The notes: a model not told the origin generated them from the letters alone. Shown: positions 43,586 to 61,132, numbered from the stretch's first letter. The stretch: DNA of 64,000 bases from Oscillospiraceae bacterium (GCA_045225715.1 JBGVBS010000015.1:1001-65000), one strand, 5' to 3'. Translations and numbers: made by a program.

Positions 43586-43624
43586 GCCGGTGTGATGGAA
43601 TTGGTAGACGTAGTGGACTCAAAA
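43586..43624 (+). pseudogene. Orphan 5' half of tRNA-Leu(CAA) (acceptor arm to anticodon loop)
   Basis: Matches positions 1-39 of the intact tRNA at 43794: 28 nt identical, then 2 mismatches in the anticodon stem. Similarity stops at the 3' side of the anticodon loop. Confidence 0.85.
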
Positions 43625-43793
43625 GCTGGTACGTTGAACAGCACGGCATTTTTCAAAAACCCTTGATTTTTGCGGCTTAGAGGTGTATCATTCTTTTCGG
43701 TTTTCCCCCCTCAATTCTCTCCTCGAATCCCCTTTTTTGTCCCTTTTAGGAGAGAATTTTTCGGGTAATTATTAGTTTTTTTAATCAATATTC

Positions 43794-43880
43794 GCCGGTG
43801 TGATGGAATTGGTAGACGTAGCGGATTCAAAATCCGCCGATGGCAACATCATGTGGGTTCGAGTCCCACCACCGGCACCA
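43794..43880 (+). tRNA. tRNA-Leu (anticodon CAA), class II with long variable arm, CCA encoded
   Basis: Acceptor stem GCCGGTG/CACCGGC, anticodon stem-loop GCGGA-TTCAAAA-TCCGC, T arm GTGGGTTCGAGTCCCAC, discriminator A and CCA. Confidence 0.95.
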
Positions 43881-43969: not shown

Positions 43970-45163
43970 CTAAGTCCTTTGCGCTTCACTATCTTGACAG
44001 GCGTTAAGAGAGCTGCTGATGTCGATACTTCCCGCCATGGTCGCGCCCGTGTCTTCCTTCGTGGAGATATCAAGGTGAGCGTAGATGTTTGCCGTCGTGC
44101 TGTAATCACTGTGTCCAAGCCATTCCTGGATCTCCTTCATGGGAACGTGGTTTGCAAGCAGAAGGCTGGCGCAGCTGTGCCTGAGCTCATGGAAGGTGAT
44201 CTTGCGCAGATGGTTCTTCTCCAGCATGAGGGCATAATGCTGCGAAACGTAGTTGGGCTTGATCGGTTCGCCGATATCATTTATATAAATGTATCCACTC
44301 TCGTTCCAACAGTTTCCGCACAGCTTTTTGCATTCGTCCTGATGCGCCTTCATTTGGAGCAGAAGCTCTCTGTACTGCGGCACAAGCGGAAGCGAACGGC
44401 AGCTCGACTTGTTCTTCGCCCTGTCCTTTGCGATCACGACCGTCTTCCCGTCCACCCTTGTCTGAACGCGGGTATGCTCAATGGTGATCCTGTTGTTCTG
44501 GAAGTCGATCGAGCGCCAGCGCAGCCCCATGATCTCGCTGCGGCGCAGCCCGTAGAACGCCGCCATCAAAACCGGAAACTCAACGCCGTCCCCGTGGATC
44601 AGTTGAATAAGCGTTTTGATCTCTTCATCCGTATAAAACTGTGCCTGATGCGCTTCGGGTCTCGGCCGGTCAACCTTACTCATGGGATTTGTCAGGATCA
44701 TGTCCATGCGAACGGCATATTTGAGTGCCTTGCTGATGTTCGCATGATAATGGATGATCGTGTTGTTGCTGACCTTGCGGACATTTGAGCAGTAGGCGTA
44801 GAAGTCCTGAATGTGGATCGCCCGAAGTTCTCCGAGCGTAATGCCCCTTTCGCGGAAGTAAGGCGCAATGCACTTTTCTACATTCGTGCTGTACCCGTAG
44901 TAGGTATCCGCTTCCACATTCGGCTTGATCGCTCTAAGCCAGTAGGTCAAAAAATCCGCAAAAAGCATGTCCTGCTCGGGCGACATGACCGGCGAAAGAT
45001 ACTTCCGCCGCTCCTCCTGAAGCATTTTCTCCGCTTTTTTCTTGTTTCCTTTGACCGGAAGCCCTGTTGCTTTCCACGTTGTTTTCCGTCTGCCCTGTGG
45101 GTTCACAAGGCTAAGTACCATATAATAGTAGCCGTTTTTTTCTTGCAGATGGCCCGCTACCAT
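43970..45163 (-). CDS. int: Tyrosine-type site-specific integrase
   Basis: 397 aa. N-terminal SAM-like/arm-binding domain. Catalytic signature HELRHSCASLL ... GHSDYSTTANIYAH (R-H-R-Y family). Confidence 0.93.
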   Translation of the reverse strand: MVAGHLQEKNGYYYMVLSLVNPQGRRKTTWKATGLPVKGNKKKAEKMLQEERRKYLSPVMSPEQDMLFADFLTYWLRAIKPNVEADTYYGYSTNVEKCIAPYFRERGITLGELRAIHIQDFYAYCSNVRKVSNNTIIHYHANISKALKYAVRMDMILTNPMSKVDRPRPEAHQAQFYTDEEIKTLIQLIHGDGVEFPVLMAAFYGLRRSEIMGLRWRSIDFQNNRITIEHTRVQTRVDGKTVVIAKDRAKNKSSCRSLPLVPQYRELLLQMKAHQDECKKLCGNCWNESGYIYINDIGEPIKPNYVSQHYALMLEKNHLRKITFHELRHSCASLLLANHVPMKEIQEWLGHSDYSTTANIYAHLDISTKEDTGATMAGSIDISSSLNACQDSEAQRT

Positions 45164-45282
45164 AATTGTCCTCCCTTCAAATGCAGCGAGCGGTGTATTC
45201 CTGCCAATGACACTGTCATTTTAGCATAAATACGCCGCTCACTTCAATTCATCCGGCAAGTTTATTTTATCGGCAAAAGTAT

Positions 45283-45480
45283 TTATTTTGCCTTTCCGTG
45301 TTCCACAAACTCGATAATTCCCTTCTTGGGGATACGAAATCCCCGTCCGATCTTCAAGTAGCGAATCTCTCCGTCGTGCAGCAGTTGATAGGCGGTCTTC
45401 ATTCCTATGCCTCCCAGCATCTCGCATAGCTGGGTAATATCCACCACATCAGGGTAATTTGCAAACATTTTTTCCTTCAT
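45283..45480 (-). CDS. xis: Excisionase-type helix-turn-helix DNA-binding protein
   Basis: 65 aa. The motif ITQLCEMLGGIGMKTAYQLLHDGEIRYLKIGRGFRIPK is typical of the HTH_17/excisionase family. Directly upstream of int. Confidence 0.8.
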   Translation of the reverse strand: MKEKMFANYPDVVDITQLCEMLGGIGMKTAYQLLHDGEIRYLKIGRGFRIPKKGIIEFVEHGKAK

Positions 45481-45647
45481 TCTCGTGCTCCTTTGTAAAG
45501 TCAGAGATGCCCTCCGGCGTCGAAACGTCGGAAGGCATCTCTTTTTTCAGCAGTCTAATGATAGCACAGGGAGCCGCGTATTATCAAGACTGTTTTGCGG
45601 TGGATTATCATACTTTTTGCGCGTACCAAGCGCGTAAAAAGTACGTA

Positions 45648-47537
45648 CTACGCCTTCCTGGCCTCCGAGGCGTCCTCATACATCCCGCACAGCAGCTCGA
45701 CGCCCTTCTTGCGGCTTTTATCGTATGTACTGGCGGAGATTTTGAGCATTTCGCAGGTTTCCTCCCTGTTCTTGCCGCCGAAGTAGTGAAGGCGGATTAC
45801 CTTTCTTTGACGCGGCGGCAGCAGCGAAACATAGAAGTGCAGACGGTCAAGCTCCTGCTCCATATCCCACAGGCGCGCCGCGAGCTTGCCGGTCGTCTCC
45901 TCGGTAAGAGCTTCCGCCTTTTCCTGATAGTGCAGGGCGATATACGCCGTCTTGTTGGAAATATGCCCCGTGGCCGTGCCGATCCCGTCGCTGTGGGTAA
46001 AATTCATCGCGCCGATCACTTCATCCGGCGTAACGTTCGCCATGTGCTCCAGCTCATAGCGATAAACCGCCAGCTTCCGTACCTTGTCCGTGTATTCCTC
46101 TAAAAGCGCCAACACGCGTGCTTCAACCGTATCACTCATAAAGCCGTTCGGCGTCAGGACGTTGAAAATCATTTTGTTGGTGATGGTCTCGCGCACCTGC
46201 GTCGCCATGTGCTGGCCCCGCGCGCTGAATTTCTCCTCCGATTCCGTCCGCACGACCTTCACGATGCGCCCCTTGATGATGTGCGGGTGCTCGCATTCGA
46301 TCAGCCCGTTTATCATGCCGGAGCCGCCGATGAGTCCGATCTGCCCGATGGAGAGGGGAAGCAGGGGCCGCTTCACGCCGCCGTCCAGCTCGCTTCGCGC
46401 CATCATCTGGGCAAAGCTGCCGGAGCGCCGCAACTGCACCTCCAGCTCTTTCTCGTTGAAGTTCTCGCCGCGGAAGTCCTTGACCTCCAGCGGACGCCCG
46501 GGCAGGGCGTAGCGCCCTTCGTCGATCGCCGTGATGCTCGGTATCTGCTCTGGGGAGAACGCATAGCGTTCCAGCCACGCCGTTTCCAGCGATTCGCGCG
46601 CCCTGCGCTTTCTGACTCCGAACACCGCCACCTGCTTGAACTTCCGAAACTCCGCGTCGGTAAAGCGCCAGACGGAGAGATCGTCGAAGTTGTCCACAAG
46701 GATCTGGCAAATATCCTGCGTCAGCCGGTAGTACGGGATGACGTAGATCAGCAGCCCGCCGTAGACGAGCGCGGGGATGCTCTCGATCAGGAAGCGTTTT
46801 TCGTGCCGTGCGCGGCTGCCGCTCTGGTTGAGGACGGACAGGTACGGGGGATTGAGAAACAACAGATGGAACGACTCCCTGCTCACCGTACTGTAGAAGA
46901 AGCTGCCGAAGCCGACGCGGTGGAGCGTCCTTTGCGCCTCCTCCGCGCGGCCTTCGTCCAGCTCCACGCCGTAGGTATAGCAGTTGTTCCCGACCGCAAG
47001 CTGCTTGAGCGCCGCGCCGCAGCCGCAGCACGGATCGAGCAGGTTGGTCGTCACGCCCTCCGGGAAGAGGACGGCGCGCAGCATGAGCGCTATGTTGTCG
47101 GGATCGGTGGGGTAGAAGCCCATCTTGACATTGTTCATCAGCCGCCCGATCACATGGGCGTTTGTGGTGTCTCCCATCGGGAGGCGCTTTGCAAACGCGC
47201 ACACGGCGTCGTAGACGCTTTTGTAGTTCGTGCTCATAAGGTCGTAGGCGAGCATTCCGTCATGGAGCTGCCCCGCAATGGGCGCGAGAGCGTATTCCTC
47301 CGCTTCCAGCAGGAACAGACGCACATCGGCGAGATTGGCGACAAGGGCTTTTCTGGAGCGCATCAGCTCCGCGTAGGCGTCCCGCGCCGCGGTGCGGTCG
47401 GTGTCCTTCGCCTGCTCGACTCTTGCCCTCTGAATGACCATTGCCGTCATCAGCTGTGGGATGCTCACGCGCAGCTCCGCGAGGCGCTCCGCCGCGTAGT
47501 AGCGGTCGGTGGCCGCGCTCTCAGGCTGCGAGTTCAT
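45648..47537 (-). CDS. SAM-dependent DNA methyltransferase (NPPY; DUF6094-like by recollection) fused in frame to a sigma-70 region-4-like/ArpU-like HTH module
   Basis: Motif I LLDPCCGCGAAL and motif IV LFLNPPY in the N-terminal ~465 aa. The C-terminal 163 aa contain LPPRQRKVIRLHYFGG...TCEMLKISASTYDKSRKKG. There is no stop and no RBS before the internal ATG at 46139. Confidence 0.75.
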   Translation of the reverse strand: MNSQPESAATDRYYAAERLAELRVSIPQLMTAMVIQRARVEQAKDTDRTAARDAYAELMRSRKALVANLADVRLFLLEAEEYALAPIAGQLHDGMLAYDLMSTNYKSVYDAVCAFAKRLPMGDTTNAHVIGRLMNNVKMGFYPTDPDNIALMLRAVLFPEGVTTNLLDPCCGCGAALKQLAVGNNCYTYGVELDEGRAEEAQRTLHRVGFGSFFYSTVSRESFHLLFLNPPYLSVLNQSGSRARHEKRFLIESIPALVYGGLLIYVIPYYRLTQDICQILVDNFDDLSVWRFTDAEFRKFKQVAVFGVRKRRARESLETAWLERYAFSPEQIPSITAIDEGRYALPGRPLEVKDFRGENFNEKELEVQLRRSGSFAQMMARSELDGGVKRPLLPLSIGQIGLIGGSGMINGLIECEHPHIIKGRIVKVVRTESEEKFSARGQHMATQVRETITNKMIFNVLTPNGFMSDTVEARVLALLEEYTDKVRKLAVYRYELEHMANVTPDEVIGAMNFTHSDGIGTATGHISNKTAYIALHYQEKAEALTEETTGKLAARLWDMEQELDRLHFYVSLLPPRQRKVIRLHYFGGKNREETCEMLKISASTYDKSRKKGVELLCGMYEDASEARKA

Positions 47538-47967
47538 AGGGGGCTTCCTTCCGCAGCGCCAACAGACCGCCGAGCAGCTCGGTGTAGCTCATGCGGCTGA
47601 AATCGGCATAGCTGAGGAAGTGATTGCAGCCGCCCTTGTGATCCCGCGAGCTGCGGATGCTCCGATAGAGTACCGCGTAGCCGCCGTGGGTGAACTGCAA
47701 GAGGCAGACGTAAACGCCGCCTTCGCTCCACATACCGGTGAGACAGCACTCGCCGGAGGTCGCAATGCCCGCAGCGTTGCTGATAACGGTTGCGTTGTGA
47801 AGCCCCAGATCCTTCGCGAGCGCGCGGAGAAAAACTCTCCCGATGTGCAGGAACAGATTCTTGTCCCCGTTCGGGCCGCACTCCTTCTCGCCGTCGATAT
47901 TGCTGAGATCTTTCCCAAGAAGCTCACTGATACGGCGCATATTGGTTTCCTGTGATTTCATAGACAT
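47521..47967 (-). CDS. Hypothetical protein (~148 aa)
   Basis: ORF in the operon chain. GGAGGA RBS 6 nt before the ATG at 47967. Stop overlaps the methyltransferase start. No family recognised. Confidence 0.55.
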   Translation of the reverse strand: MSMKSQETNMRRISELLGKDLSNIDGEKECGPNGDKNLFLHIGRVFLRALAKDLGLHNATVISNAAGIATSGECCLTGMWSEGGVYVCLLQFTHGGYAVLYRSIRSSRDHKGGCNHFLSYADFSRMSYTELLGGLLALRKEAPYELAA

Positions 47968-47969
47968 AT

Positions 47970-48185
47970 TCATTCCTCCATGACAGCACGTTGTTTTTCT
48001 TCTATGCGTTGCTTTAGGTCTCGGATGCGGTCTTGCAGTTGAGAATAGCGCGTCGTGGACGGGGTTTTGTTGCGGCGCATACAGTAGCCCCACTCCATTC
48101 CCGTCCGGCGCATGACCTCCGCGTAATACTGCTCCTCCGCTTTTGCAAGCTGCTTTTTCAGCGTTTCGAGCGAATAATTCCGCAT
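47970..48185 (-). CDS. Small coiled-coil hypothetical protein (~71 aa)
   Basis: Helical, charged sequence. The ATG at 48185 is preferred over the GTG at 48194 on RBS spacing. Confidence 0.45.
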   Translation of the reverse strand: MRNYSLETLKKQLAKAEEQYYAEVMRRTGMEWGYCMRRNKTPSTTRYSQLQDRIRDLKQRIEEKQRAVMEE

Positions 48186-48212
48186 AATAGCCACCCTCGG
48201 AAGATCAAACGG

Positions 48213-48959
48213 TTACGCCGCCTGCTCGCCGCGGGCGCCCTCGAAATCAAAGACGGGGGCGTTATCCTCCGGCGTTCCGGGCAGCACGCGAAGCGTATAG
48301 CCCTGATCCCTCAGCAGGAGAAAGCTGCTGACGATGCGCTTGAGTTCCACGTCGCCTTCGTCCGCCGCAATGCCGTTTTCCTCCATGATCTCGCGCACCG
48401 TCTTGGCGACCTGCAAGCGGATGGCCTCCGTTTCCGCGGCGTCCGCGGCGCGATCCAGCGCCTCCTCCGCCTCTGCGACGTCCACCTGCTTCTGCTCTGG
48501 TTCCGGCTCTTCCGCCTTGCGCGGTTCCTTGAGGGAAAGCCACAGCGACGTGAGTGCGGAGAGGATCAGCGTCATCAGCAGACCGCGCTTCTTGGGACGC
48601 AGATTTACCACCTCGTCGGCATCCACTTCGTCCACCTCGCTGACCGCGACGGTCAGCTTGCCCGTCTTGACGTAGGCGGCGGAGAGGAACGTGGACACGG
48701 CCGCGCACTCGCTCGCGATCAGCTCCGGCGTCTGCGCCTGCTCAGCGATGAAACGCTTGCAGATGACCGAGCCGGACTCGACCTCACGGATGCGGATGTC
48801 ATTCGCGTGGATGCTCTGGGCGTCGATCATGCCGTCGCCTGCGATGGTCTTGGCGTGGACGCCGTAGGTAACCTTCAGGCAGCCCTTGACGATCAGACGC
48901 TCCGTTTCCAGAGACTCATAGCGAACGGTTTCGCCCTTGGGAATGTAGATGGTTTTCAT
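48213..48959 (-). CDS. Membrane-anchored protein with bactofilin-like beta-helical N-domain
   Basis: Start set at MKTIYIPKG. Repetitive beta-strand region (KGCLKVTYGVHAKTIAGDGMIDAQSIHANDIRI...), one TM helix (LLMTLILSALTSLWLSL), an acidic linker and a C-terminal domain. Confidence 0.55.
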   Translation of the reverse strand: MKTIYIPKGETVRYESLETERLIVKGCLKVTYGVHAKTIAGDGMIDAQSIHANDIRIREVESGSVICKRFIAEQAQTPELIASECAAVSTFLSAAYVKTGKLTVAVSEVDEVDADEVVNLRPKKRGLLMTLILSALTSLWLSLKEPRKAEEPEPEQKQVDVAEAEEALDRAADAAETEAIRLQVAKTVREIMEENGIAADEGDVELKRIVSSFLLLRDQGYTLRVLPGTPEDNAPVFDFEGARGEQAA

Positions 48960-48994
48960 GATGCGATTCTCCTTTTCCTTTTTTATCTCGCCGC

Positions 48995-49759
48995 TTATGC
49001 GGCTTTGTTTTTGGGCTTTTCGAGCGTCGTCTGCATACGGACGGTCTTCGTCGAAAAATCCGTCTGTTTGGCGGTACATTCCCCGTGCGTGAGGATGTTG
49101 TAGACCATATCCACCACGGCGGTCGCCGCCGTGATGTTGGCGGCCATGCTCTGGGGATCGGACTGCGACGCCTCGGCGCAGGAAAGCTCCGTGGGGAATT
49201 TGTCGTCCTTGTCACGCAGCAGGGCGGGGTAGACGCTCCCGACCGGCTTTTGCACGGTGCGCCCGCTTCTGCGGACGCCGCACACCACCTGCCCGGAAAA
49301 CTCCCCGTTGCCGCTGTCGATGTAGATCAGCTCCTTCGACTGCATAAACGCCTTATGGCAGACCTGACGAGACTTGTTGTTGTCCACTGCGCCGATCAGC
49401 ACGACCATTTCCTTGACCGTGTGGTATTCTTCCTCATTACGCTTCCAATCCAGCGGCCGGATCAGCTCCATGAGCGTATCCAGCGACTCGATGAAAGCCG
49501 GCACATACTCGGTCTCCATGCCGAACACGCGCGAATACCGCTCCGCAAGCACCTTTGCCTTGTTCAAGCCGAGATCGGCCTCCGAGAAATTCTGCCGCAC
49601 GAGGTTTTTCTGCTCCACGATGTCGCCGTCGCAGATGATAAACCGCGCCGGTCTCTCCAGCGAATAGAGCAGCCGGTAGATGTGCGGCGCGATGTGTCCG
49701 CCCGTGCCCCCGGCGCCGAGCATGACGAGCTTGACGGGGCGCTCCGTGTCAAACTTCAT
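48995..49759 (-). CDS. ThiF/E1-like adenylyltransferase (PRTRC-type ThiF-like)
   Basis: Rossmann motif VMLGAGGTGG, then ICDGDIVEQKNLVRQNF and GLNKAKV motifs of the E1/MoeB/ThiF fold; 254 aa, no E2 or rhodanese domain. Confidence 0.85.
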   Translation of the reverse strand: MKFDTERPVKLVMLGAGGTGGHIAPHIYRLLYSLERPARFIICDGDIVEQKNLVRQNFSEADLGLNKAKVLAERYSRVFGMETEYVPAFIESLDTLMELIRPLDWKRNEEEYHTVKEMVVLIGAVDNNKSRQVCHKAFMQSKELIYIDSGNGEFSGQVVCGVRRSGRTVQKPVGSVYPALLRDKDDKFPTELSCAEASQSDPQSMAANITAATAVVDMVYNILTHGECTAKQTDFSTKTVRMQTTLEKPKNKAA

Positions 49760-50993
49760 GGCGCAGTTCCTCCAGAAGCCGCGGTAAGCTCTTGCCGCTT
49801 CGCACTTTCTCGCTCTTGCAGGTCACCATGCCGCTCCACTCCGAGGGATATGGCTGCTCCAGCCCTTCGATCACCACGTTCGGATCAATCTCGACGAAGC
49901 TGCCGCCGCAGGCGATGCGCGTCATGATTTCCGGGAAAAAGTGGTCGAGCTTGCCGACGACCATATAAAGGCCGGTGCCACGCTCGTCATCATCGTCCAC
50001 GCCGGAGAAAAACGCTTCCATGCTGTTGTGACTGTGGATGTCCGCGTAACGGATATAGCGGTCTTCGTCCTCATACGGGCAGTCCGTGAGATCCGCGTCG
50101 ATCGCTTCTTTCGAGACCGTCTGCTTGGGAACATAGGCAAAGAAGTCCTTTGTCTCCTTGTCCCAATAGATGATCGCCAGCGCCTCGTATTCGCTGTTCC
50201 CCTGCATAAAGGAACGGAAGAAAGCGATGATCTGCCCGATCAGGCGCATCGGGACGCGGGGCAGAGCCGGGATGAACCCGGCCCTGACCTCCTCAAAATC
50301 GACGACCTTGTGTTTGGGGGCGATGAACTCGCCCTGCTCGGTCTTGTGCATCTCGTAGATCTTGCCGTCGCTGCCTGGGAAAAGGCAGATGACCTTATCC
50401 GAGGCCCGCGCGTCCGTCACGGAGACAAACTTCCCCTTGTAGGAAGTCGCCGTACCCTTTTTCTGCATGGTTACTTTCGGCTTGATGAGGCAATCCGGGT
50501 TCTTGTCCTTCGCCTTCTTGAGCGCGTCGAGGAACTCACGGGAGCGTTCGATGGTCTCTTTCATGGAGATGATCGTGGTGCCCTTCGGATCTTTGATCTG
50601 CTTGATGATGCCGCAGTATTCCACGCTCCACGAGACGTTTTTGCCCTCCTCCAGATCGGTGAAGTCCTCAGACTTGCGGATACGAAGCTCCTCAAAGGTC
50701 ATGGAGGGATCGTCGATGGGTTCCTTCGCGTTCTTGTGGCAGAACACGGGCGGCTTCTCAAAAAGCCCCTTCTGCGCGTTCTCCACCGTCTTCTGGGAGA
50801 ATGCCGCCGCCAATGGGTTTTCCGTGGGCGTTTCCTCAGCGGGCTGCTGCGGCGCGGCGGCAGGCTCCGACTCAAACGGGTTTGCGTCGCCAGTGGTCGT
50901 GCTGCTGCCGGACTGGAAGATGCCGTCAAAGTTCAATCCTTCGGCCTCGGGCAGATCCCCAAACGGCCAACTGTTGCTGTTCGCTTCGCTCAT
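49749..50993 (-). CDS. JAB/MPN (JAMM) metallopeptidase-domain protein with long N-terminal extension
   Basis: Complete JAMM signature: E(YEALAIIY) ... HSH-x7-S-x2-D (IHSHNSMEAFFSGVD, encoded about 49995-50036). Start set at MSEANSNSW with a GGGAG RBS; the ORF track start at 51074 is an alternative. Confidence 0.85.
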   Translation of the reverse strand: MSEANSNSWPFGDLPEAEGLNFDGIFQSGSSTTTGDANPFESEPAAAPQQPAEETPTENPLAAAFSQKTVENAQKGLFEKPPVFCHKNAKEPIDDPSMTFEELRIRKSEDFTDLEEGKNVSWSVEYCGIIKQIKDPKGTTIISMKETIERSREFLDALKKAKDKNPDCLIKPKVTMQKKGTATSYKGKFVSVTDARASDKVICLFPGSDGKIYEMHKTEQGEFIAPKHKVVDFEEVRAGFIPALPRVPMRLIGQIIAFFRSFMQGNSEYEALAIIYWDKETKDFFAYVPKQTVSKEAIDADLTDCPYEDEDRYIRYADIHSHNSMEAFFSGVDDDDERGTGLYMVVGKLDHFFPEIMTRIACGGSFVEIDPNVVIEGLEQPYPSEWSGMVTCKSEKVRSGKSLPRLLEELRHEV

Positions 50994-51144
50994 AGGTGTT
51001 ATCTCCCTTCGTGTTTTGGGACAAAAAAAGACCGCAACCGCCCAAAGGCAATTACAGTCACATTTCTTGTCCATATTTGATTTTTCAGGTCATAGTATCC
51101 GGCGGAGGGCGCAATAACCCCCTTTCTTCGCCGTTCCTCCCTCG

Positions 51145-51172
51145 TTTACTCCGCCCTAATTTACTCCGCCCT
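51145..51172. repeat. Tandem direct repeat TTTACTCCGCCCT x2 (2-nt spacer)
   Basis: Two exact 13-bp copies with 15-bp periodicity, in the intergenic region upstream of the JAB/E1 operon. Confidence 0.9.
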
Positions 51173-51230
51173 GAAAACAAGTTCATTGTAGCATTCGGGC
51201 AGGAGTGTGTATAGTTGGAGTTTTTCCAAT

Positions 51231-51267
51231 AGTAAAAACCGGGGGGCTTGTTTCCAAGTCCCCCGGT
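51231..51267 (-). terminator. Rho-independent terminator closing the toxin-immunity cassette
   Basis: Minus strand reads ACCGGGGG-(14 nt loop)-CCCCCGGT followed by TTTTT, 24 nt after the stop at 51291. Confidence 0.75.
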
Positions 51268-51290
51268 ACATAGTTGGCGTTGCGTGTTTC

Positions 51291-51551
51291 CTACGCTGAA
51301 AAGGACGGACGGACATCTCCCTTGATGCCCAGAAGCTCATGCTGCTTGAGTTCCCATGTGACTCTCGTTACTTCCTCAACGAAATAGCGTTCTTTCGCCG
51401 TCGCGGTGTAGTAGCGAATGCCAAATTGCTTGCAAATATCGAACAACAATTCAGTATAGGCGATATTCTCCTTATCCGGCTTTGCAAAATAGCCGCCCGC
51501 TTTTGCTGCAAGATCGTCTAACTCACGGTCAATATCTGCGTTCCTGTCCAT
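51291..51551 (-). CDS. Small acidic protein, candidate immunity/antitoxin partner (86 aa)
   Basis: ATG at 51551 lies 1 nt after the upstream stop and has an AGAGGA RBS. Low GC like its partner. No family recognised. Confidence 0.5.
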   Translation of the reverse strand: MDRNADIDRELDDLAAKAGGYFAKPDKENIAYTELLFDICKQFGIRYYTATAKERYFVEEVTRVTWELKQHELLGIKGDVRPSFSA

Positions 51552-51552
51552 G

Positions 51553-52173
51553 CTATCGTCCTCTTTTGTCAGTCTTGTCAAGCTCCGGCTTGTAGCCAGG
51601 GTGCTCATATATGTACTCGGTATTCCCGGACACCAGTTTTTCTTTTTTCAATACCGTTAAGCTCGGCTGTCCCGCGATGTAGTCCATAATGCCTTCGGCA
51701 AAGATAGAGCGGCAGAAATAGTTTCCGGTATCTTGATCCAGAAACACAAAAAATACAATGTCCGTTTTTGCGCTTTTTACTACAAATTCAGCAGGTATTC
51801 TCGTTCCGCCGCGTACATGGTTTTGATAATAGCGGCAAATACGAAAATCCGAATCCAATCCAGCCTCTAATTGGGTGATGCCAAGCAAGCGTGAACGAAT
51901 ACTGTTCTCCCAATTAACGCTTTTTTCTATGAGGCTGCCGTCTATCGTTCCGTCCATAATTTTTTGCGGCAGCGTGATTTTACGCAGCTCCGATGGGCGA
52001 ACGCCAAAGTCAATGTCATTGGCGTATTGAAAACCGGCAAGGTGGTAAAAATGTTCGGGCAAAAAGTTGAGCGAAATTGACCGAGACCATGTTCCCTTCA
52101 TCCCCAGCAGGAGGCGGTACTCTTTGTCGTATAGGTTTGTCCATGCTATTGCCGCGTCGTTTAGAAGCCCCAT
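51553..52173 (-). CDS. PBECR4-like (phage-Barnase-EndoU-ColicinE5/D-RelE-like) putative nuclease toxin
   Basis: 206 aa. The motif ISLNFLPEHFYHLAGFQY resembles the N-terminal signature I recall for PBECR4-domain proteins. GAGGA RBS. GC visibly lower than its surroundings. Confidence 0.45.
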   Translation of the reverse strand: MGLLNDAAIAWTNLYDKEYRLLLGMKGTWSRSISLNFLPEHFYHLAGFQYANDIDFGVRPSELRKITLPQKIMDGTIDGSLIEKSVNWENSIRSRLLGITQLEAGLDSDFRICRYYQNHVRGGTRIPAEFVVKSAKTDIVFFVFLDQDTGNYFCRSIFAEGIMDYIAGQPSLTVLKKEKLVSGNTEYIYEHPGYKPELDKTDKRGR

Positions 52174-52194
52174 GAACCTGTCCTCTGTGTGTAC

Positions 52195-52383
52195 TCAAAA
52201 ATAGAAGGATACCGCCGAAACGGTATCCCTCTACGTGGTGTTTTCTTTCGGATGGTTGCCCACCCTGAGCCAGTCCGTGGAATCCACCGAACCCTCGTTA
52301 TGGCTCCACAACGAACGGCACGATACCGCGCTGGCCCCGCTCGTTGCTTCTCCGCCGGGGTAACCCTCAAGTGGTTACCTGCT
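52195..52383 (-). ncRNA. Structured ~190-nt leader RNA or sRNA of unknown class, ending in an intrinsic terminator
   Basis: Bounded by a consensus promoter (52390-52418) and a GGATACCG-TTTCGG-CGGTATCC plus U5 terminator (52197-52228). Contains several strong helices, including a GNRA-capped one. No credible ORF. Confidence 0.6.
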
Positions 52384-52389
52384 GATAGT

Positions 52390-52418
52390 ATATTACACTA
52401 TGGCGTAATAAATGTCAA
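52390..52418 (-). promoter_or_regulatory. Consensus sigma-A promoter driving the leader RNA / toxin cassette
   Basis: Minus strand reads TTGACA, 17 nt, TAATAT. Confidence 0.75.
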
Positions 52419-52453
52419 CGAAAAATTGGAAAACAAACTATGGGCAATCGTTT

Positions 52454-54043
52454 TCACACCCTCTCGCTCACGATAGACCTCACGATGTCGTCGCCGGTCA
52501 GCTCGCTGGTGCGGTAGATCTTCTGGCAGAACGCCTGCATGCTGAAATCAAAGCAGGCTTTTCCCTTATCCAGCAGGATGCCGGTCACGGAAAAGTGCCT
52601 TGCGGCCTGTTCCGCGCGCAGCTCCGCGGCAAAGTCCTCCGAAAGCTTGCATTCGCCATCTGTCAGAAATACCACGTCGGCGTTCTCAAAACCGCCGCTT
52701 CTCATAAGCTCCAACGACTGGCGCATCGGCGTTTCAAAGTCCGTGCCTCCGTCCAAAAAGGTCTCTGCCGCGCGGAACTTGTCCTCCGCGGTGTACTCGC
52801 CGGGGCGGAACACGTCTACCTGAACATCGCCGGGATCGGAGAAGTGGATCAGCGCAAAGGCGTGCCGGCCGCTCGCCGCGATCTCCAGCAGCGTCATGGC
52901 GACGGCCTTGCCCCACGCGACGGGATCTCCTCGTGTGGACGCGGATTCGTCGAGGCAGCAGATGATGTCGCCCATACCCTTGAACACCGGCTCGCGGCAC
53001 CGGTACTGCTTGATCTGCTTCGTGCGGTACTTTTGCAGGAACAGAGGCGTCGTCATCGGCGTCGAGAGCATGGCAAGCTCGCTCGTCAGGGCTTTCGACA
53101 GGTCGTTGCCGAGTTCCAGCGAATACTTCTCGCCGCGGCCGTAGGCGTATCCGTTCTTTTTCCCCTGGGCGAAGATTTCACGGAAACGCCCGAGGTAGCG
53201 GGAGATATCCACAAGCTCCTTGCTCTGGCGGACGCGCCGCAGCAGCTCCGTGTTCATGGGGCAACGCGTCATATTGCCCGGCTCGTCGCTCCACGCGGCG
53301 AGGATGTCGCGGGTTTCCTCCGTGTGCGCCTTTGTCGCGGAAAGCATGGCTCCGAGGATGGCGTTTGTTTCATCCTCCTGCCTGTGCAAGCCCACGTCTA
53401 TGATCTGCGATACCGCCTCTACCTGCTTTACCTTGCTCTCCAACTGGTTCGCCGTGCTGACAAGCGCCTTATCCCATTTTTCATCGGGTTCGGGCGACCG
53501 CTCGCGCTCCCGCAGGAGATTCGCCAGATCGTCCGCCCATTCCTGTGCGGAAGCCTCCAGCTTGTCGAGCGTTTCCATGCTCTTGTCGTCGCCGCCGACG
53601 CCGGAAAGCAGATCGTCAAGCTCCGCGGCAGTGCGCCTCGTAAAATCGCTCGCCGCGTCATACGCCAGCATTTCGCGTCCCTCGCAGATGGCCTTGAGCG
53701 TGGAAAAATCGCTTTGCCCGGTCACATGAGAGAGGATGTGCGCGTTGAACTTGCGCGCCATCGCCGAGAGCTTTTCATCGTCGTTTCTGCGCGGGGAAAG
53801 GGAATAGAACGACTGAAACACGTCGCGGGAGAGCGCGGGAAAGCTTTTGAGCTTTCCCGACGCCGCCTGCTCGATCCCGTCCATCTCTTCGTCGCCCGCA
53901 CGGAGGTCTTTGTAGATTTCATCCTCCAGACGCGTCGAACGCAGGATGCGGTCCGTGCGCTCCTTGGGCTTTTTCACCAGCGCACCCACGTTTGCCCACG
54001 CGCTGCGCAGCACGTCGGAAACCGATGTAAACGCTCTTTTCAT
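52454..54043 (-). CDS. von Willebrand factor A (vWA) domain protein
   Basis: C-terminal vWA domain with MIDAS motif DESAS (DxSxS) and LTDGE. The ATG at 54043 overlaps the upstream stop (ATGA); the ORF track start 54076 is a TTG. Confidence 0.85.
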   Translation of the reverse strand: MKRAFTSVSDVLRSAWANVGALVKKPKERTDRILRSTRLEDEIYKDLRAGDEEMDGIEQAASGKLKSFPALSRDVFQSFYSLSPRRNDDEKLSAMARKFNAHILSHVTGQSDFSTLKAICEGREMLAYDAASDFTRRTAAELDDLLSGVGGDDKSMETLDKLEASAQEWADDLANLLRERERSPEPDEKWDKALVSTANQLESKVKQVEAVSQIIDVGLHRQEDETNAILGAMLSATKAHTEETRDILAAWSDEPGNMTRCPMNTELLRRVRQSKELVDISRYLGRFREIFAQGKKNGYAYGRGEKYSLELGNDLSKALTSELAMLSTPMTTPLFLQKYRTKQIKQYRCREPVFKGMGDIICCLDESASTRGDPVAWGKAVAMTLLEIAASGRHAFALIHFSDPGDVQVDVFRPGEYTAEDKFRAAETFLDGGTDFETPMRQSLELMRSGGFENADVVFLTDGECKLSEDFAAELRAEQAARHFSVTGILLDKGKACFDFSMQAFCQKIYRTSELTGDDIVRSIVSERV

Positions 54044-54591
54044 TCCGACGCTCTCCTTTCGGCATTGTGCATCCAAGCAAGGAGGATATCCTGCGCGCGT
54101 TTGCGGTCGTTGCCCAGCTCAGGAAACTCCTTTTGCAGATACGGAACAGCGCCGAGCATATTGGTGACGCCGGATTCCCGGAGCTTATCCAGATATTCAT
54201 AGTATTTCCGCTCTTTTTCCATGTCGTACTCCTCCAATTCTTTCACAGTTTTGCGGACTTTCTCTTCAAAAAAGCGATGCCGCACAAAAATGTCCGCATA
54301 GCAGCCATAAGCGTCGTAATCCTCAATATTGACCTGTCGCAGCCGCGGGTAGTTGCGCCTGTAATAGTCCTCTGAGTTCCAGTCAGTCTTGCACTGCTTG
54401 TCTTCCCGCTGTATCCGAACGCAAAGCTTACAATCGAGCTCTCTTGTTTCAACGTACCATCGGCAAATCAAGTCGTTCGTGCTTCGTCCCGCAAAAAATG
54501 TGTCGTCAACATATTCGCGAGCGAATTGAACGGCTTGTGCAAATTCAAATCCGTCTCTGCATTTGATGATTGCGGACGGCACCATAAACAC
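54040..54591 (-). CDS. Hypothetical protein with DUF5049-like C-terminus (by recollection)
   Basis: 183 aa, GTG start. C-terminal YEYLDKLRESGVTNMLGAVPYLQKEF motif is seen in phage-associated small domains. Confidence 0.5.
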   Translation of the reverse strand: MFMVPSAIIKCRDGFEFAQAVQFAREYVDDTFFAGRSTNDLICRWYVETRELDCKLCVRIQREDKQCKTDWNSEDYYRRNYPRLRQVNIEDYDAYGCYADIFVRHRFFEEKVRKTVKELEEYDMEKERKYYEYLDKLRESGVTNMLGAVPYLQKEFPELGNDRKRAQDILLAWMHNAERRASE

Positions 54592-54612
54592 AGCACTCGC
54601 CTCGCTTTCGCG

Positions 54613-54876
54613 TCAACCGAAAAAGCTTATCGCCTTGTCCGTCAACCACGCCTTGATACCTTCCGGGCATTTGAGAGTGTCTTCACCTCCGCGGCACTCA
54701 AAGTTGCACATCGAGCAGGGGCAAGCCATGTTGCTTTCGATAATCTCCTCGGCGAGCTTCCCGATGAAGCGCATGGTATCCAAGGGGATCTTGCCGCTTT
54801 TGACCTTTTCGGCGCAATCGCCGCAAACCACAAAGCCGGATGAAACGGAAGCGTTGCAGCACATACATTTTGCCAT
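54613..54876 (-). CDS. Cys-rich small protein (zinc-ribbon-like)
   Basis: 87 aa with CMCC, CGDC, CPCSMCNFEC and C motifs. Confidence 0.55.
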   Translation of the reverse strand: MAKCMCCNASVSSGFVVCGDCAEKVKSGKIPLDTMRFIGKLAEEIIESNMACPCSMCNFECRGGEDTLKCPEGIKAWLTDKAISFFG

Positions 54877-54947
54877 AATGCGATTCTCCTTCTCTTGTTA
54901 CTTGCAGGGGAGGGCCGAAGCCCTCCCCATGACATAGCTGTGTTCGA

Positions 54948-55397
54948 TCAGGCGCCGAAGCCGGGATCAAAGCCCTCCGGCACGGCAAAATCGGAAAAAC
55001 CGCCGTCCGCCGGCGCAAAGCTGTCATCCGGCGCGAAGCTGCCATAGGCGGGCGTTTCGTCCTCGCCCTCCTGCTTGGGGCGCGAGTCGCCGAAATACAG
55101 CCGATCCGCGTGGATCTCCGCGCTGCGGCGCTTGTTCCCGTTCTTGTCCGTCCAGGGACGGATCTGCAAGCTGCCGTCCACAACGATCATGCGGCCCTTC
55201 GTGAAATACTTGGCGGCAAACTCCGCGGTGCTGCGCCACGCAACGATGTCGATGAAATCCGTCACCTTTTCCTCTTCCTTGCCGCCATAGTCGCGGTCGC
55301 AGGCGATAGAAAAGCTGCAAACAGCGGTGCCGGACTGCGTGCGGCGCAGTTCGGGATCGTGAGTAAGTCTGCCCATGATAACGATTCTGTTCAGCAT
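54948..55397 (-). CDS. ssb: Single-stranded DNA-binding protein
   Basis: OB-fold N-terminus MLNRIVIMGRLTHDPELRRTQSGTAV and a Gly/Asp-rich tail. Confidence 0.93.
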   Translation of the reverse strand: MLNRIVIMGRLTHDPELRRTQSGTAVCSFSIACDRDYGGKEEEKVTDFIDIVAWRSTAEFAAKYFTKGRMIVVDGSLQIRPWTDKNGNKRRSAEIHADRLYFGDSRPKQEGEDETPAYGSFAPDDSFAPADGGFSDFAVPEGFDPGFGA

Positions 55398-55425
55398 AAT
55401 AGATATCCTCCCAAAAATTAAGTCA

Positions 55426-56805
55426 TTATTGCAGAGCTGTCAGCTCCGCGAGCGGCATGTAGGTGAAGCTCACCGATTCCGCAGCGTCCTTGCTGATCTT
55501 CTCCAGCGTATCCAGAAGCGTCGCCGTCATAGCCCTTTCCGCGTCGGACTCCGCCGCGGCGTCAAGCTCCTGCTGCCTCGCGTAGAGCCGTACCAGCTCG
55601 CCGCGGAGCTTTTGCAGGGCGCTTATGGCGCTGTTCGGGCGCTCTGTGTCGTTGATGCTGTCGTCGAACTCCTCCTTGACCTCATGGGCCATCGCAGCCA
55701 CGTCCGCGACCTTATCCTGCATGGGATTCACGCAAAGACGGTTGAGCACGCTCTCCACAACGGCGCGGTCGCCGGACTTCTCCCACAGGTAGCACTTGAG
55801 GATGAGCATATCCTTCGGCGTCACCTTGTCGCTGCCCTCCAGCCATGCCTTTGCCTGCGCCAGCGGGTAGTAGTTGAGGTACTTTCTGTCGGAGACAGTC
55901 AGATCGTTCCGGCGCAGCTCGCAGAGAATGTCGTCGGCAAGCTCGTTGATGGCGTCGGGGACGGTGATCGCGGCGACCTCACGCTGCATGGCAAGCAGTT
56001 CGTCGAGCGTGATGGTCGTCATGACCTGTCCTGCGTGGCCGCCCTGCTTGTTTTTGAGCACGGCAAGGCGCTTGTCGCGGTCCGCGATGTCCTCCGTCAC
56101 CACCTTGATCTGAAGACGGTCATACAGCGCCTCCAGTATCTTCTCCTGCGGATCGGCAAAGTTGGGTATCTCGTTCGACGCCGCAAAAAAGGAGATGGTC
56201 GGGATGGCGTAGGTGCGTCCCTCGTTGGTGTATTTGCGCTCGTTGAGCGCCATCAACAGCGAGTTCAGCACGCCGTCGTTCGCCTTGAAGCATTCGTCGA
56301 GAAACACGATCTCGGCTTCCGGGATCTTGCCCGCCGTCTGCACGCTCGGCTCGCCGGTGTGATGAATGGCTGCAAGCGCCTTGCGATAGGCGTCCAAATC
56401 CTCCGTTGCGTCCTTCATGGCGACTCGGTTGCCCAAATCGCTCGTGTCCTGCGCGTATTCGTCCGTGATGCGCTCCAGCTCGGCTTTGAGCTTCTGATAG
56501 GCCGGATCGCCCGCAAACGCCGCCTCTGGCACGGAGCCGGGGATGAGGCTTGCAAGGTCGATACGCCCGAAGAGCTGCTCCTCGTCGGTCTGCTTGGAGA
56601 GCAGCCGCTCAAACTGCCGCGCGCCAGTGATGTGCCGGCGAAACAGGTTGATGGAATACGACTTCGCCTGTCCGGGGCGGCCAAGGATAAAGAGGTTGTT
56701 CCGCGTCAGCAGCGCAATGGCGATCAGTTCGGTAAGCTCCTCGCGCTCGGCGACCTCCGCGTTCACGTCCGCGATGACGGCAAGCATCTTTTCACGAAGC
56801 GTCAT
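55426..56805 (-). CDS. MoxR-like AAA+ ATPase
   Basis: Walker A GRPGQAKS and Walker B IVFLDECFKAN; 459 aa with a C-terminal helical domain. Confidence 0.85.
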   Translation of the reverse strand: MTLREKMLAVIADVNAEVAEREELTELIAIALLTRNNLFILGRPGQAKSYSINLFRRHITGARQFERLLSKQTDEEQLFGRIDLASLIPGSVPEAAFAGDPAYQKLKAELERITDEYAQDTSDLGNRVAMKDATEDLDAYRKALAAIHHTGEPSVQTAGKIPEAEIVFLDECFKANDGVLNSLLMALNERKYTNEGRTYAIPTISFFAASNEIPNFADPQEKILEALYDRLQIKVVTEDIADRDKRLAVLKNKQGGHAGQVMTTITLDELLAMQREVAAITVPDAINELADDILCELRRNDLTVSDRKYLNYYPLAQAKAWLEGSDKVTPKDMLILKCYLWEKSGDRAVVESVLNRLCVNPMQDKVADVAAMAHEVKEEFDDSINDTERPNSAISALQKLRGELVRLYARQQELDAAAESDAERAMTATLLDTLEKISKDAAESVSFTYMPLAELTALQ

Positions 56806-57428
56806 GCCGCGGCACCTCCCTCCGAAGCGCCGTAGACCGGCACCTCATAGATGCAATAGTGCAGCGAAAAGCTCGACTCCTCGACTGCGGCAGGCTCAAA
56901 GAAGAAGTATTCACGATCCTCATACTGCGCCGTTCCCGCGAGGATTGCCTTGTAGTGTTCCTTTTCCTCAAAAGCATCCAAGTCGTCGAGCATCGCGCGC
57001 ATCAGCATGGCCTTGTCCGCGCTGATGGCGACCGTGCCGATCGTGCTGTCGCACTCGCCGTCATAGGTGAACACGAGCGCGTACAGCTTGCTCTCGCTTT
57101 TGGGAAGTGCCTCCGTAACCGGCTCCAGCATATCGGCATCCATTACCACACTGTCGAGCGGCAGCTCGGAGATGGTTTTCGGCATCTGATAGAGCTTGGA
57201 GAAGCGGCTTTCGCTCTCCGCGACTATGTGTGCTTTTGCGGGGACCATGAAATCACAGACAATCTCCGCGCCCTCGTTCTCCGTTTCTTTGTCGCTGCCG
57301 TCGCGGATTTCGGAAACGCGTCCGAAGAGTCCGCAGTAATCGCTTTCGCTGTTCGAGAAAACCATGCCGCCGATGGTGAAGGTCTTGCCTGCGGCGGTAA
57401 AGGTTTCACCCTGTTTATCAAGTACCAT
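56802..57428 (-). CDS. Hypothetical two-domain protein ending in GGAAA
   Basis: 208 aa. ATGA overlap with the AAA+ gene. No family recognised. Confidence 0.55.
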   Translation of the reverse strand: MVLDKQGETFTAAGKTFTIGGMVFSNSESDYCGLFGRVSEIRDGSDKETENEGAEIVCDFMVPAKAHIVAESESRFSKLYQMPKTISELPLDSVVMDADMLEPVTEALPKSESKLYALVFTYDGECDSTIGTVAISADKAMLMRAMLDDLDAFEEKEHYKAILAGTAQYEDREYFFFEPAAVEESSFSLHYCIYEVPVYGASEGGAAA

Positions 57429-58182: not shown

Positions 58183-58535
58183 GCCGCCAGCTCTTCGTAT
58201 TCCCCGGCGTCCTCGCGCGCGTCCGTGAAGGACGCAGCGCGATTGCCGATGAACGCGGTATGTGCTTCCGTGCGAGCGTGAGAGCGGCGCGGGCGCGCGC
58301 ATTTGAACAGCTCGCGCTCCAGTTGTGTTTCGAGGTATCCCTCCATCTCGCCATTGGCGGAGTCATGGGCGTCCACCGCCCTGATCATCCGCTCGGCGAG
58401 CTGCTGATAGATGTCGTCCTTCTCCGTGCGGGCGGCCTTGACGATATCGCGGTGCGCCTCCATCACTTTGTCGATCAGGGGAAGGTGCTTCAGCACGATG
58501 TCGTTGCGCTCTTCGGTGTTCATAACGGTCTTCAT
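58179..58535 (-). CDS. Small helical protein resembling sigma-70 region 2 only
   Basis: Start at MKTVMNT (GAGGA RBS 7 nt upstream). The pattern NDIVLKHLPLIDKV...DDIYQQLAERMIRAVDAHD resembles sigma region 2.1-2.3. No region 4 is present. Confidence 0.4.
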   Translation of the reverse strand: MKTVMNTEERNDIVLKHLPLIDKVMEAHRDIVKAARTEKDDIYQQLAERMIRAVDAHDSANGEMEGYLETQLERELFKCARPRRSHARTEAHTAFIGNRAASFTDAREDAGEYEELAA

Positions 58536-58598
58536 ATTGAAATCCTCGCTTTCCAAAATCTGTAAAATGTAGTGTGTTGGGTTTGATCGCGCGGCAGG

Positions 58599-59536: not shown

Positions 59537-59537
59537 A

Positions 59538-59933: not shown

Positions 59934-59941
59934 TCCTCCTT

Positions 59942-61123: not shown

Positions 61124-61132
61124 TGTCGCCTC

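Follow-up and report, generated by a model that had tools for sequence, protein, structure and literature searches.

What kind of system is formed by an E1-like (ThiF) protein and a JAMM/JAB metalloprotease whose genes overlap on a mobile element, when neither a conjugating enzyme (E2) nor any ubiquitin-like protein (Ubl) can be recognised beside them? This question is raised by a stretch of 64,000 nucleotides (nt) from an Oscillospiraceae bacterium (GCA_045225715.1, JBGVBS010000015.1:1001-65000), which as a whole is called the window here and in which, according to open reading frame (ORF) calling, the genes of the region concerned are all located on the minus strand. A preliminary description, made from the sequence alone, had reported the gene pair and had suggested a PRTRC-like protein-modification module; the observation is confirmed by the present analysis, and its interpretation is supported in part. 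The reading that we favour, with somewhat more confidence than doubt, is that the locus constitutes the core of a PRTRC-type (6d) conjugation module with a self-processed Ubl-JAB fusion, located in the replication/recombination region of the element. Its carriers are a family of Oscillospiraceae integrative elements and plasmids, and a sister form is found on Bacilli megaplasmids.

An E1-like protein and a JAMM protein encoded by overlapping genes

The downstream gene of the pair (48995-49759, minus strand) encodes a ThiF-family protein of 254 amino acids (aa) which ends in Ala-Ala and shows the motifs GAGGTGG (aa 15-20) and DGD...NLVRQ, as had been described. It matched PF00899 with 48.8 bits (cut-off 28.1), and its best match in NCBIfam was PRTRC_ThiF (TIGR03736) with an E value of 3.3e-28. 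In an alignment of 69 ThiF sequences, including three proteins from Bacilli plasmids, the GxGGxG motif (G15-G20), D44, R55, K67, D126, R131 and Cys194 (in 'ELSC') are conserved, the latter occupying what is presumably the position of the crossover-loop cysteine of MoeB and ThiF. Judged by these residues, the protein possesses the Rossmann motif, the ATP-Mg site and the cysteine of the E1-like/ThiF superfamily, and it represents a minimal E1 with no E2 domain, in agreement with the earlier account. That it might instead be an ordinary ThiF or MoeB enzyme of cofactor biosynthesis was rejected, as the equivalog models gave scores of 23-37 bits compared with cut-offs of 152-275, and no ThiS/MoaD, thiazole or molybdopterin neighbours are present.

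The upstream gene (49749-50993, minus strand) encodes the JAB protein. Its stop codon (49749-49751) and the ATG of the ThiF gene at 49759 define the 11-nt overlap that had been noticed before. The start codon proposed earlier (51074, for a protein of 441 aa) had to be replaced by the most likely ATG at 50993, which is preceded by the ribosome-binding site GGGAG and agrees with homologues beginning with MSE..., so that the protein comprises 414 aa. Residues 181-414 (49749-50453, minus strand) contain a disordered linker, a JAB-N region and a JAMM/MPN+ metalloprotease domain up to the stop codon. The complete JAMM signature claimed for the C-terminus is borne out; it consists of E270 and H320-S-H322-x7-S330-x2-D333 (414-aa numbering), with the HSH-x7-S-x2-D codons at 49995-50036. 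None of the residues E270, H320, S321, H322, S330 and D333 varies among 31 relatives with an identity of 27-46%.

In an AlphaFold2 (AF2) model of the 414-aa protein, the JAB domain reached predicted local distance difference test (pLDDT) values of 80-93. Its best match to a solved structure in Foldseek was 8tyx_B, a BilC-type deubiquitinase (DUB) in a bacterial Ubl-deubiquitinase complex (5.9e-6), with Rpn11 and AMSH next and a Foldseek probability of 1.0 for Rpn11, AMSH and the bacterial DUB. The C-terminus is predicted to combine an MPN fold with the JAMM/MPN+ motif, and with a confident model that resembles JAMM deubiquitinases the earlier reservation that a modelled JAB domain might lack metal-binding geometry does not seem to apply. 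PRTRC_A (TIGR03735) was the sole NCBIfam match of the protein (E value 1.5e-11), covering the JAB half only (model positions 72-190), and Pfam Prok-JAB gave 21 bits, just below its cut-off of 25. A PDB sequence search with the family profile yielded nothing. Homology of the two proteins to JAB proteases and E1 enzymes, as well as the integrity of their catalytic motifs, can be considered established.

The pairing of the two genes is equally well established and extends far beyond this genome. A sample of 84 related loci was analyzed, consisting of 80 genome loci, mostly from Oscillospiraceae metagenome-assembled genomes and isolates, and four plasmid loci; three Bacilli megaplasmids and one proteobacterial PRTRC plasmid are included. 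The ThiF gene directly follows the JAB gene in 77 of these loci, the exceptions being mostly loci that end at or near the JAB gene, and the two are adjacent on the three Bacilli megaplasmids and on a 168-kb Subdoligranulum plasmid; the concern that they might not co-occur in other genomes is thereby removed. More than 1,100 full-length relatives of the JAB protein (90% identity clusters) were found, nearly all in gut and rumen metagenomes, and 2,761 representatives were obtained at the 50% level with E values up to 1e-3.

A candidate modifier fused to the protease

The second point of the question, the apparent lack of a modifier, was addressed in the gene neighbourhood as well as within the JAB protein. 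As had been stated, no free small ORF with a GG end is adjacent to the pair, and a free-standing small Ubl (PRTRC protein C, TIGR03738 / Prok_Ub) was found neither in the window nor in the relatives. However, the N-terminal half of the JAB protein, the region for which a fold search had been recommended, is predicted to contain a beta-grasp-like domain (aa 78-180; 50454-50762, minus strand), delimited by AF2 and conservation and ending in K179-G180 (codons 50454-50459). The view that neither an E2 nor a ubiquitin-like gene is recognisable was given up on account of this domain, with its invariant Lys-Gly, and of the E2 genes present in about 46 relatives. In the model of the 414-aa protein, aa 83-174 show the topology ββ-α-ββ-αα-β with a pLDDT of about 80 (about 75-84 for the domain of aa 78-180), and a model of the domain only gave the same topology. 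The top Foldseek lists for the domain (PDB, BFVD) consist almost wholly of ubiquitin-like folds, with template modelling (TM) scores of up to 0.6, and include the UBL of USP11/15, PB1, UBX, elongin B, RA and ATG8, as well as an E. coli multi-ubiquitin protein and giant-virus ubiquitin-like proteins.

Among the 31 relatives with 27-46% identity, G180 is one of two invariant residues in the N-terminal half and K179 is at least 90% conserved. The glycine belongs to the motif [VI]xPx[VI]xxQ[KS]KG, six residues past the last strand, and K179-G180 lie in a segment (aa 176-187) that is disordered in the AF2 model. What speaks for a beta-grasp modifier is, in short, a predicted ββαββ..β topology together with an invariant glycine, and Foldseek lists that are rich in Ubls without reaching a significant E value. 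In the Bacilli plasmids the domain measures 63-68 aa, which is the size of PRTRC protein C, and the free protein C of a Sphingomonas PRTRC locus ends in ...AVGTKG-stop; a TKG end was found in 118 of 120 protein C homologues, which are closely related to one another. Profile searches with the N-terminal 272 aa and with the trimmed domain against NCBIfam and Pfam returned no Ubl, E2 or PRTRC_B/C match.

No other Ubl candidate was encountered in the conserved neighbourhood (about 50 neighbourhoods). Two small genes were tried and rejected: an 87-aa Cys-rich ORF that ends in Gly has no family match and is present in only 6 related loci, and a 97-aa gene preceding the E2 gene in relatives has no family match either and belongs to a family that ends in Phe-Cys or Tyr-Cys, not Gly. 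Because of the conserved Lys-Gly end, the agreement with protein C in this end and, for the Bacilli form, in size, and the lack of another Ubl in the neighbourhood, we read the 414-aa protein as a Ubl-JAB fusion in which G180 would become the C-terminus of the modifier.

The domain is preceded by a short acidic/hydrophobic N-terminal motif and a Pro/Ala/Glu-rich disordered linker (aa 1-77; 50763-50993, minus strand; pLDDT below 50); in relatives, the linker varies in length and the N-terminal motif recurs. This motif, located within aa 1-35 (50889-50993, minus strand), reads LNFDGIF here, LDDFLE, LNSFLE or QFNLFG in relatives and QELTLFDLG or KQFDLFDVG in Bacilli, and resembles the beta-clamp-binding motif QL[SD]LF.

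If the fusion is processed, the 414-aa precursor would consist of an N-terminal docking motif, the disordered linker, a beta-grasp Ubl ending with Lys179-Gly180, a flexible linker, and JAB-N plus the JAMM domain. The JAMM domain would cut after Gly180, in cis or in trans, leaving a free Gly carboxylate. The minimal E1, whose translation would be coupled to that of the fusion, would adenylate Gly180 and probably load the modifier onto Cys194, from where an E2 of the Prok-E2_D / PRTRC-B-like kind, encoded in related elements and characterized by an invariant YPFSNV...C, would pass it to target proteins; the same JAMM domain could reverse the modification. Exposure of a modifier's C-terminal glycine by proteolysis before E1 activation is known for QbsE/QbsD and CysO/Mec+, and likewise for eukaryotic ubiquitin fusion precursors. 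In all these cases the protease is a protein of its own, whereas here modifier and protease would be parts of one polypeptide.

E2 genes, PRTRC operons and alternative explanations

A 219-aa protein encoded downstream of the methyltransferase gene in a compact Defluviitaleaceae relative matches Prok-E2_D, and an E2 of the Prok-E2_D / PRTRC-B-like kind is present in about 46-50 related loci, 2.5-3 kb beyond the methyltransferase gene. The usual gene order in relatives is methyltransferase, 97-aa protein, protein of about 190 aa, E2, Rad52-like protein, SMC-like ATPase and primase-like protein, and on the 168-kb Subdoligranulum plasmid JAB, ThiF, a 248-aa protein, methyltransferase, 97-aa protein, E2, Rad52-like, SMC-like and primase genes stand in a row. 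Prok-E2_D scored 33 bits in locus L040 compared with a gathering score of 25, and 25.0 bits, exactly at that score, for the homologue on a Sporosarcina plasmid. PRTRC_B matches of E2 homologues had E values of 1.3e-4 (Sporosarcina plasmid) and 0.018. The sequence YPFSNV-x5-C-x-G-x-N-x-LP is invariant in 46 E2 sequences and corresponds to an E2-like 'HPN...C' arrangement. The occurrence of an E2 in relatives is therefore clear, and the reported absence of an E2 holds for the 64-kb window but not for the neighbourhood of the family (33 versus 25 bits with Prok-E2_D).

In the survey by Iyer, Burroughs and Aravind (2006; PMC1779556), the counterpart of PRTRC is operon type 6d. Operons of this type occur on mobile elements and unite a Ubl whose C-terminal Gly is conserved with a JAB protein containing JAB-N, an E1, an E2-like and an alpha-helical protein. 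The cassette is described by the families TIGR03734-03742 and by Pfam Prok_Ub, Prok-E2_D, Prok-JAB and ThiF, and in a PRTRC locus annotated in Sphingomonas the genes are arranged ParB-E-C-x-B-A-ThiF, where A and ThiF overlap as in the present locus. The present locus resembles such operons in the best family matches of both JAB and E1, in the JAB-then-ThiF order with overlapping frames, in JAB-N preceding JAMM, in the Prok-E2_D / PRTRC-B type of the relatives' E2, in the Lys-Gly end of the candidate modifier and in being carried on plasmids and integrative elements. In addition, a protein of about 150 aa and a PAPS-reductase-like gene are found in both neighbourhoods, the homologue of the former being encoded two genes after the PRTRC ThiF gene of the Sphingomonas plasmid (40% identity over 91 aa; pairwise E value 2e-11).

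In contrast to PRTRC/6d operons, there is no free Ubl (protein C) here but a beta-grasp-like domain fused to the JAB N-terminus, the E2 of relatives is encoded several genes away past the methyltransferase and is absent from the window, and family scores do not reach the NCBIfam cut-offs. Instead of mostly Proteobacteria, Clostridia and Bacilli act as hosts, and the genes are embedded among clamp, clamp-loader, SSB and recombination genes. As the species given earlier for type 6d (row 6d in PMC1779556) include Bacillus cereus and B. thuringiensis, a Firmicutes host is not new in itself. We regard the locus as a Firmicutes variant of the known PRTRC/6d system with a dispersed E2 and, probably, a Ubl-JAB fusion, so that the earlier proposal of a PRTRC-like E1 plus JAB module on a mobile element is sustained, the element being integrated at a tRNA-Leu gene with its own integrase (int) and excisionase (xis) genes.

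Other ubiquitin-like systems are more distant. With Bil (BilABCD) the locus shares separate E1, E2, JAMM deubiquitinase and Ubl functions and the match of the JAB model to 8tyx, but there is no membership at the sequence level, the Ubl is apparently fused to the protease, and the genes lie in the replication region of a mobile element and not in a defence island. The Cap2/Cap3 proteins of type II CBASS likewise combine E1-type adenylation with a JAB protease that reverses conjugation, and weak PADLOC E1-E2 matches were obtained; however, the E1 is not fused to an E2 here and PADLOC found no CD-NTase or effector. Bub (6E / DUF6527) is a predicted bacterial Ubl operon of the 2006 survey with E1, E2-like protein, Ubl and peptidase (PMC11601596). 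The chemistry of Bub proceeds through oxyesters, its E1 and E2 have no catalytic Cys and its peptidase is a serine protease; in the family studied here, by contrast, Cys194 of the E1, the Cys of the E2 and the JAMM site have all been conserved. A 2024 preprint counts the remaining families as uncharacterised (PMC11601596), and literature searches for PRTRC, Prok-E2 and PDB 9EGB-D retrieved annotation mentions only and no functional study.

A number of observations weigh against a PRTRC-type module with a processed fusion. Both proteins score below the family cut-offs (PRTRC_ThiF, 98.7 bits versus 144.75; PRTRC_A, 44.2 bits versus 101.8), and no PRTRC ParB, C, E or F was detected in the neighbour ORFs scanned (47521-59363; NCBIfam, E values up to 10). 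A profile built from 46 E2 homologues found no E2 among all six-frame ORFs of the 64-kb window (best E value 0.65). Biochemical work on any PRTRC or 6d system was not found in the literature searches. As to the domain itself, the mean pLDDT of its model was only 68, its best Foldseek E value was 0.14 and not significant, neither its sequence nor its structure matched any Ubl significantly, and Pfam Prok_Ub does not match it. An hhalign comparison with PRTRC protein C gave an E value of about 0.5, also not significant, although the register agrees. No natural split Ubl gene (KG-stop) was found among the relatives, the sole apparent split (L089) being an assembly gap, and one relative, L088, has JAB-N, JAB and ThiF without the Ubl domain and with an unrelated gene upstream.

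The closest structural neighbours of the domain include internal, non-conjugated UBLs of USP deubiquitinases, those of USP11 and USP15 being the top Foldseek matches, and this favours the most serious competitor of the fusion reading. According to it, the beta-grasp-like domain is an integral regulatory or docking domain that is never released, similar to DUSP-UBL in USP4/11/15, and the actual modifier comes from a gene elsewhere, or else from the host or a competitor, for instance in counter-defence against Bil- or CBASS-type immunity. The lack of significant similarity to protein C and the domain-free L088 fit this explanation, as does the fact that PADLOC E1-E2 (Cap2-like) models touch the Rossmann segment of the E1. 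However, these models cover aa 10-80 of the E1 only, and the JAB protein had no PADLOC match. Moreover, E1 and E2 are conserved together with JAB and yet no free Ubl occurs in about 50 neighbourhoods, an invariant Gly in a disordered linker, six residues past the last strand, is hard to explain structurally, and the Lys-Gly end is the same as the C-terminus of the free PRTRC Ubl. We consider a permanently attached domain unlikely.

Less probable still is a sulfur-carrier relay in which the E1 would form a Gly thiocarboxylate, as with ThiS, MoaD, CysO and TtuB, after the JAB protein had exposed the Gly in the manner of Mec+ and QbsD, and in which a PAPS-reductase-like PP-loop enzyme would thiolate nucleic acid of the element. 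Pathways that join JAB, E1 and ThiS-like proteins in sulfur transfer are well documented (rows 4d and 4e of PMC1779556). A PAPS-reductase-like protein of 254 aa is indeed encoded in the window (58599-59363, minus strand; phrog_424, 8.8e-29), the Sphingomonas PRTRC plasmid (L002) carries a PAPS-reductase family gene (10397-11557) just after ThiF, and the element has other DNA-modification genes such as that for the DUF6094 methyltransferase. However, the PAPS-reductase-like gene is present in only 1 of about 11 Oscillospiraceae relatives with a covered upstream region, family scans showed no rhodanese or cysteine desulfurase nearby, the E1 remains far below the ThiF/MoeB equivalog cut-offs, and about 46 relatives have an E2-like protein with an invariant Cys, for which sulfur carriers have no need.

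Similarly doubtful is a module that truly lacks an E2, either because the E1 needs no partner to hand on the modifier, like UbaA with archaeal SAMPs and TtuC with TtuB, or because the pair is what is left, in decay, after the E2 part was lost. Ubl conjugation independent of an E2 is known from SAMP/UbaA. Besides the fruitless E2 profile search, the E2 companions of relatives (97-aa, 192-aa, Rad52-like, SMC-like and primase-like proteins) are not encoded in the window either, and xis, int and tRNA-Leu directly follow the methyltransferase gene in place of the E2 block. The protein of about 150 aa was tried as an E2, since it has the right size and a Cys, and was rejected, as the Cys beside GG-x-N is not conserved and profile support is missing. 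However, the element continues beyond position 64000, so that the E2 block may lie at the end that the window does not cover. Once the element is circular, that end would come after int, where the E2 block of relatives is situated. Alternatively, the block may have been lost. The closest relative, L087 (83% identity), has a 185-aa gene past the methyltransferase gene, at the site where other relatives carry the gene of about 190 aa that precedes E2. Both genes of the pair are intact with all catalytic residues, which speaks against decay.

The element, its expression signals and its protein tails

Genes of DNA metabolism surround the pair. A divergent clamp-like gene is located downstream of ThiF in 38 relatives; where its place was examined (L009, L011, L029, L040 and L067), it comes immediately after ThiF or overlaps it. 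Of the three Bacilli megaplasmids examined, pBsph and pSP10-266k have dnaX and holB after ThiF, and pBpOF4-01 has a group II intron and an unnamed gene there, followed by delta'. Upstream of the pair lie genes for SSB and a further clamp homologue, as well as for an SNF2 helicase and a MoxR-vWA pair. As the pair is embedded among SSB, clamp-like and SNF2 genes, with Rad52-like, SMC-like and primase genes in relatives, we infer that the targets are likely DNA-metabolism proteins of the element or the host that would be modified during establishment or replication of the element. In some relatives, a Lar-like (restriction alleviation) zinc-ribbon protein is encoded between the clamp-like and 248-aa genes (L040, 13287-13760), which is consistent with an establishment or anti-restriction region.

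The element extends from about 43.9 kb to the end of the window (64 kb), so that only one of its ends lies inside. It borders on a tRNA-Leu(CAA) gene (43794-43880, plus strand; ARAGORN), which is followed by a tyrosine integrase gene (43970-45163; Pfam Phage_integrase) and an HTH_17 excisionase-like gene (45283-45480; Pfam HTH_17), both on the minus strand. A second copy of the 5' half of the tRNA-Leu gene, with a few changes (43586-43640, plus strand, versus 43794-43850), lies upstream of the intact tRNA at a distance of about 208 nt; this half-copy beside the integration end may have been left by an earlier integration or rearrangement. A prophage origin was rejected, as matches were limited to seven weak or partial phage records. 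The remainder of the element was not recovered; the exact clamp protein was found only on one contig of 3.5 kb and on one of 10-20 kb, and GCA_045114355.1 contains the identical clamp gene.

Downstream of ThiF, the order described previously (248-aa gene, two small ORFs, methyltransferase gene) was retained, while the start codons were revised: the 248-aa gene probably starts at 48959 and not at 49079, and the supposed 190-aa ORF encodes about 150 aa from 47973. The 248-aa protein (48213-48959, minus strand) is a conserved partner encoded downstream of ThiF in 58 loci; it starts with MKTIYIPKG, ends in Ala-Ala, has one hydrophobic segment (aa 126-144) according to hydropathy and gave no match in family scans (Pfam, NCBIfam, PHROGs). 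It is followed by a 74-aa ORF (47970-48194, minus strand), for which L087 has a 71-aa counterpart in the same place, and by the conserved protein of about 150 aa (47521-47973, minus strand), which ends in Ala-Ala and is present in 44 loci with homologues of 148-150 aa; a homologue search with it yielded close relatives only. The DUF6094 methyltransferase (45648-47537, minus strand; PF19587, 3.1e-168, 559 bits), present in 58 loci, has a sigma-70 region-4-like C-terminus (Sigma70_r4_2, 1.3e-7). With this helix-turn-helix region it measures 629 aa, compared with about 470 aa in L087 and L074, and for the L087 enzyme a sigma-70 family is not on record.

Further upstream of the Ubl-JAB gene, a 105-aa ORF, a PBECR4 nuclease gene (51553-52173, minus strand; family scan), a drum RNA and a gene for a vWA protein are found. 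The drum RNA (Rfam RF02958, 68 bits versus a gathering score of 43), with a terminator (52233-52357, minus strand), lies directly upstream of the nuclease gene, and both occupy a variable slot between the vWA and Ubl-JAB genes, which in L087 holds a PIN gene preceded by a small 74-aa gene. The bpMoxR AAA ATPase, SSB and vWA genes form a conserved block upstream of Ubl-JAB (52454-56805, minus strand) that occurs in 20-30 relatives. ORFs of 183 and 87 aa (54040-54876, minus strand) lie between the vWA and SSB genes, and beyond 54876 there are genes for SSB, the MoxR ATPase, two ORFs (56802-58302), the PAPS-reductase-like protein, a DnaN-like clamp and an SNF2 helicase, the last of which extends past the end of the window. 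When the uncharacterised neighbour ORFs were scanned against PHROGs and PADLOC, the PAPS-reductase-like protein alone was matched.

The earlier proposal that the Ubl-JAB gene begins a fresh transcription unit is supported. An intrinsic terminator (51231-51267, minus strand), a hairpin of -22.6 kcal/mol followed by U5, closes the upstream (PBECR4 / 105-aa) unit; a simple terminator scan had overlooked it, probably owing to its long apical region. A consensus scan added a promoter-like site, TATACA-17-TACAAT with a TG (51185-51213, minus strand), of which CTATACA-N17-TA(C/A)AAT is kept in most of about 30 related leaders. Just after the -10 box there are two to three direct 15-nt repeats, AGGGCGGAGTAA(A/G)TT (51131-51173, minus strand; positions 51171, 51156 and 51141), the third being degenerate; such repeats, AGGGCGGAGTAAGTT, are present in most of the related leaders and are a candidate operator or RNA site for protein binding. 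The scan also revealed a terminator-like hairpin with U7 (51020-51072, minus strand), which folds with -31.2 kcal/mol and lies 36 nt before the start codon of Ubl-JAB. It was found in 23 of 23 distinct related leaders with compensatory stem changes, and further hairpins are also conserved across the approximately 30 relatives. No Rfam match was obtained for the leader, whose hairpin is a candidate attenuator or antitermination target. As a conserved terminator-like hairpin precedes the ATG, expression probably depends on read-through or antitermination.

Another feature of the element concerns the C-termini of its proteins. In a survey of window positions 44000-64000 and loci L005-L084, 223 of 826 co-directional ORFs (27%) in the related loci end in Ala-Ala, and in the window this was the case for 7 of 20 element genes (stops at 47521, 48213, 48995, 56802, 58599, 59942 and 61133) versus 0 of 44 host ORFs. 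By family, the share amounts to 88% for ThiF, 92% for the 248-aa protein, 95% for the 150-aa protein, 97-100% for both clamp-like proteins and 100% each for Rad52-like and SMC-like proteins, compared with 9% for Ubl-JAB, 2% for E2 and 0% for vWA and MoxR proteins. A motif at the DNA level was rejected, as codons and stop codons vary freely, which indicates selection at the protein level. The tails are most simply explained as an ssrA-like ClpXP degron, which belongs to a class of C-terminal tags of unique potency (PMC10862746), and a link between the tails and the E1/JAB chemistry may exist. More speculative, and in our estimate quite improbable, is a scheme in which a released tag with a clamp-binding-like motif would be placed on replisome or recombination proteins such as the sliding-clamp homologues of the element, as a counterpart of PCNA ubiquitylation/SUMOylation, and would act jointly with an Ala-Ala degron code that makes E1, clamps and recombinases short-lived.

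PRTRC/6d operons have been known from genome comparison since 2006 and are common on plasmids and integrative elements, but unlike CBASS-Cap2, Bil and Bub they have remained without a known function. The Firmicutes branch described here is abundant in gut metagenomes and offers a compact, testable form of the system, in which a candidate modifier, its presumed processing site Lys179-Gly180 and the protease are contained in one polypeptide, the E1 is translationally coupled to it and the E2 can be identified in relatives. The close linkage to genes for clamps, clamp loaders, SSB and recombination directs attention to DNA replication or to the element's establishment, and from the conserved leader and the Ala-Ala tails one may suspect that timing as well as protein lifetime is tightly controlled. 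The 6d family is thus provided with a concrete, testable mechanism and with a biological context.

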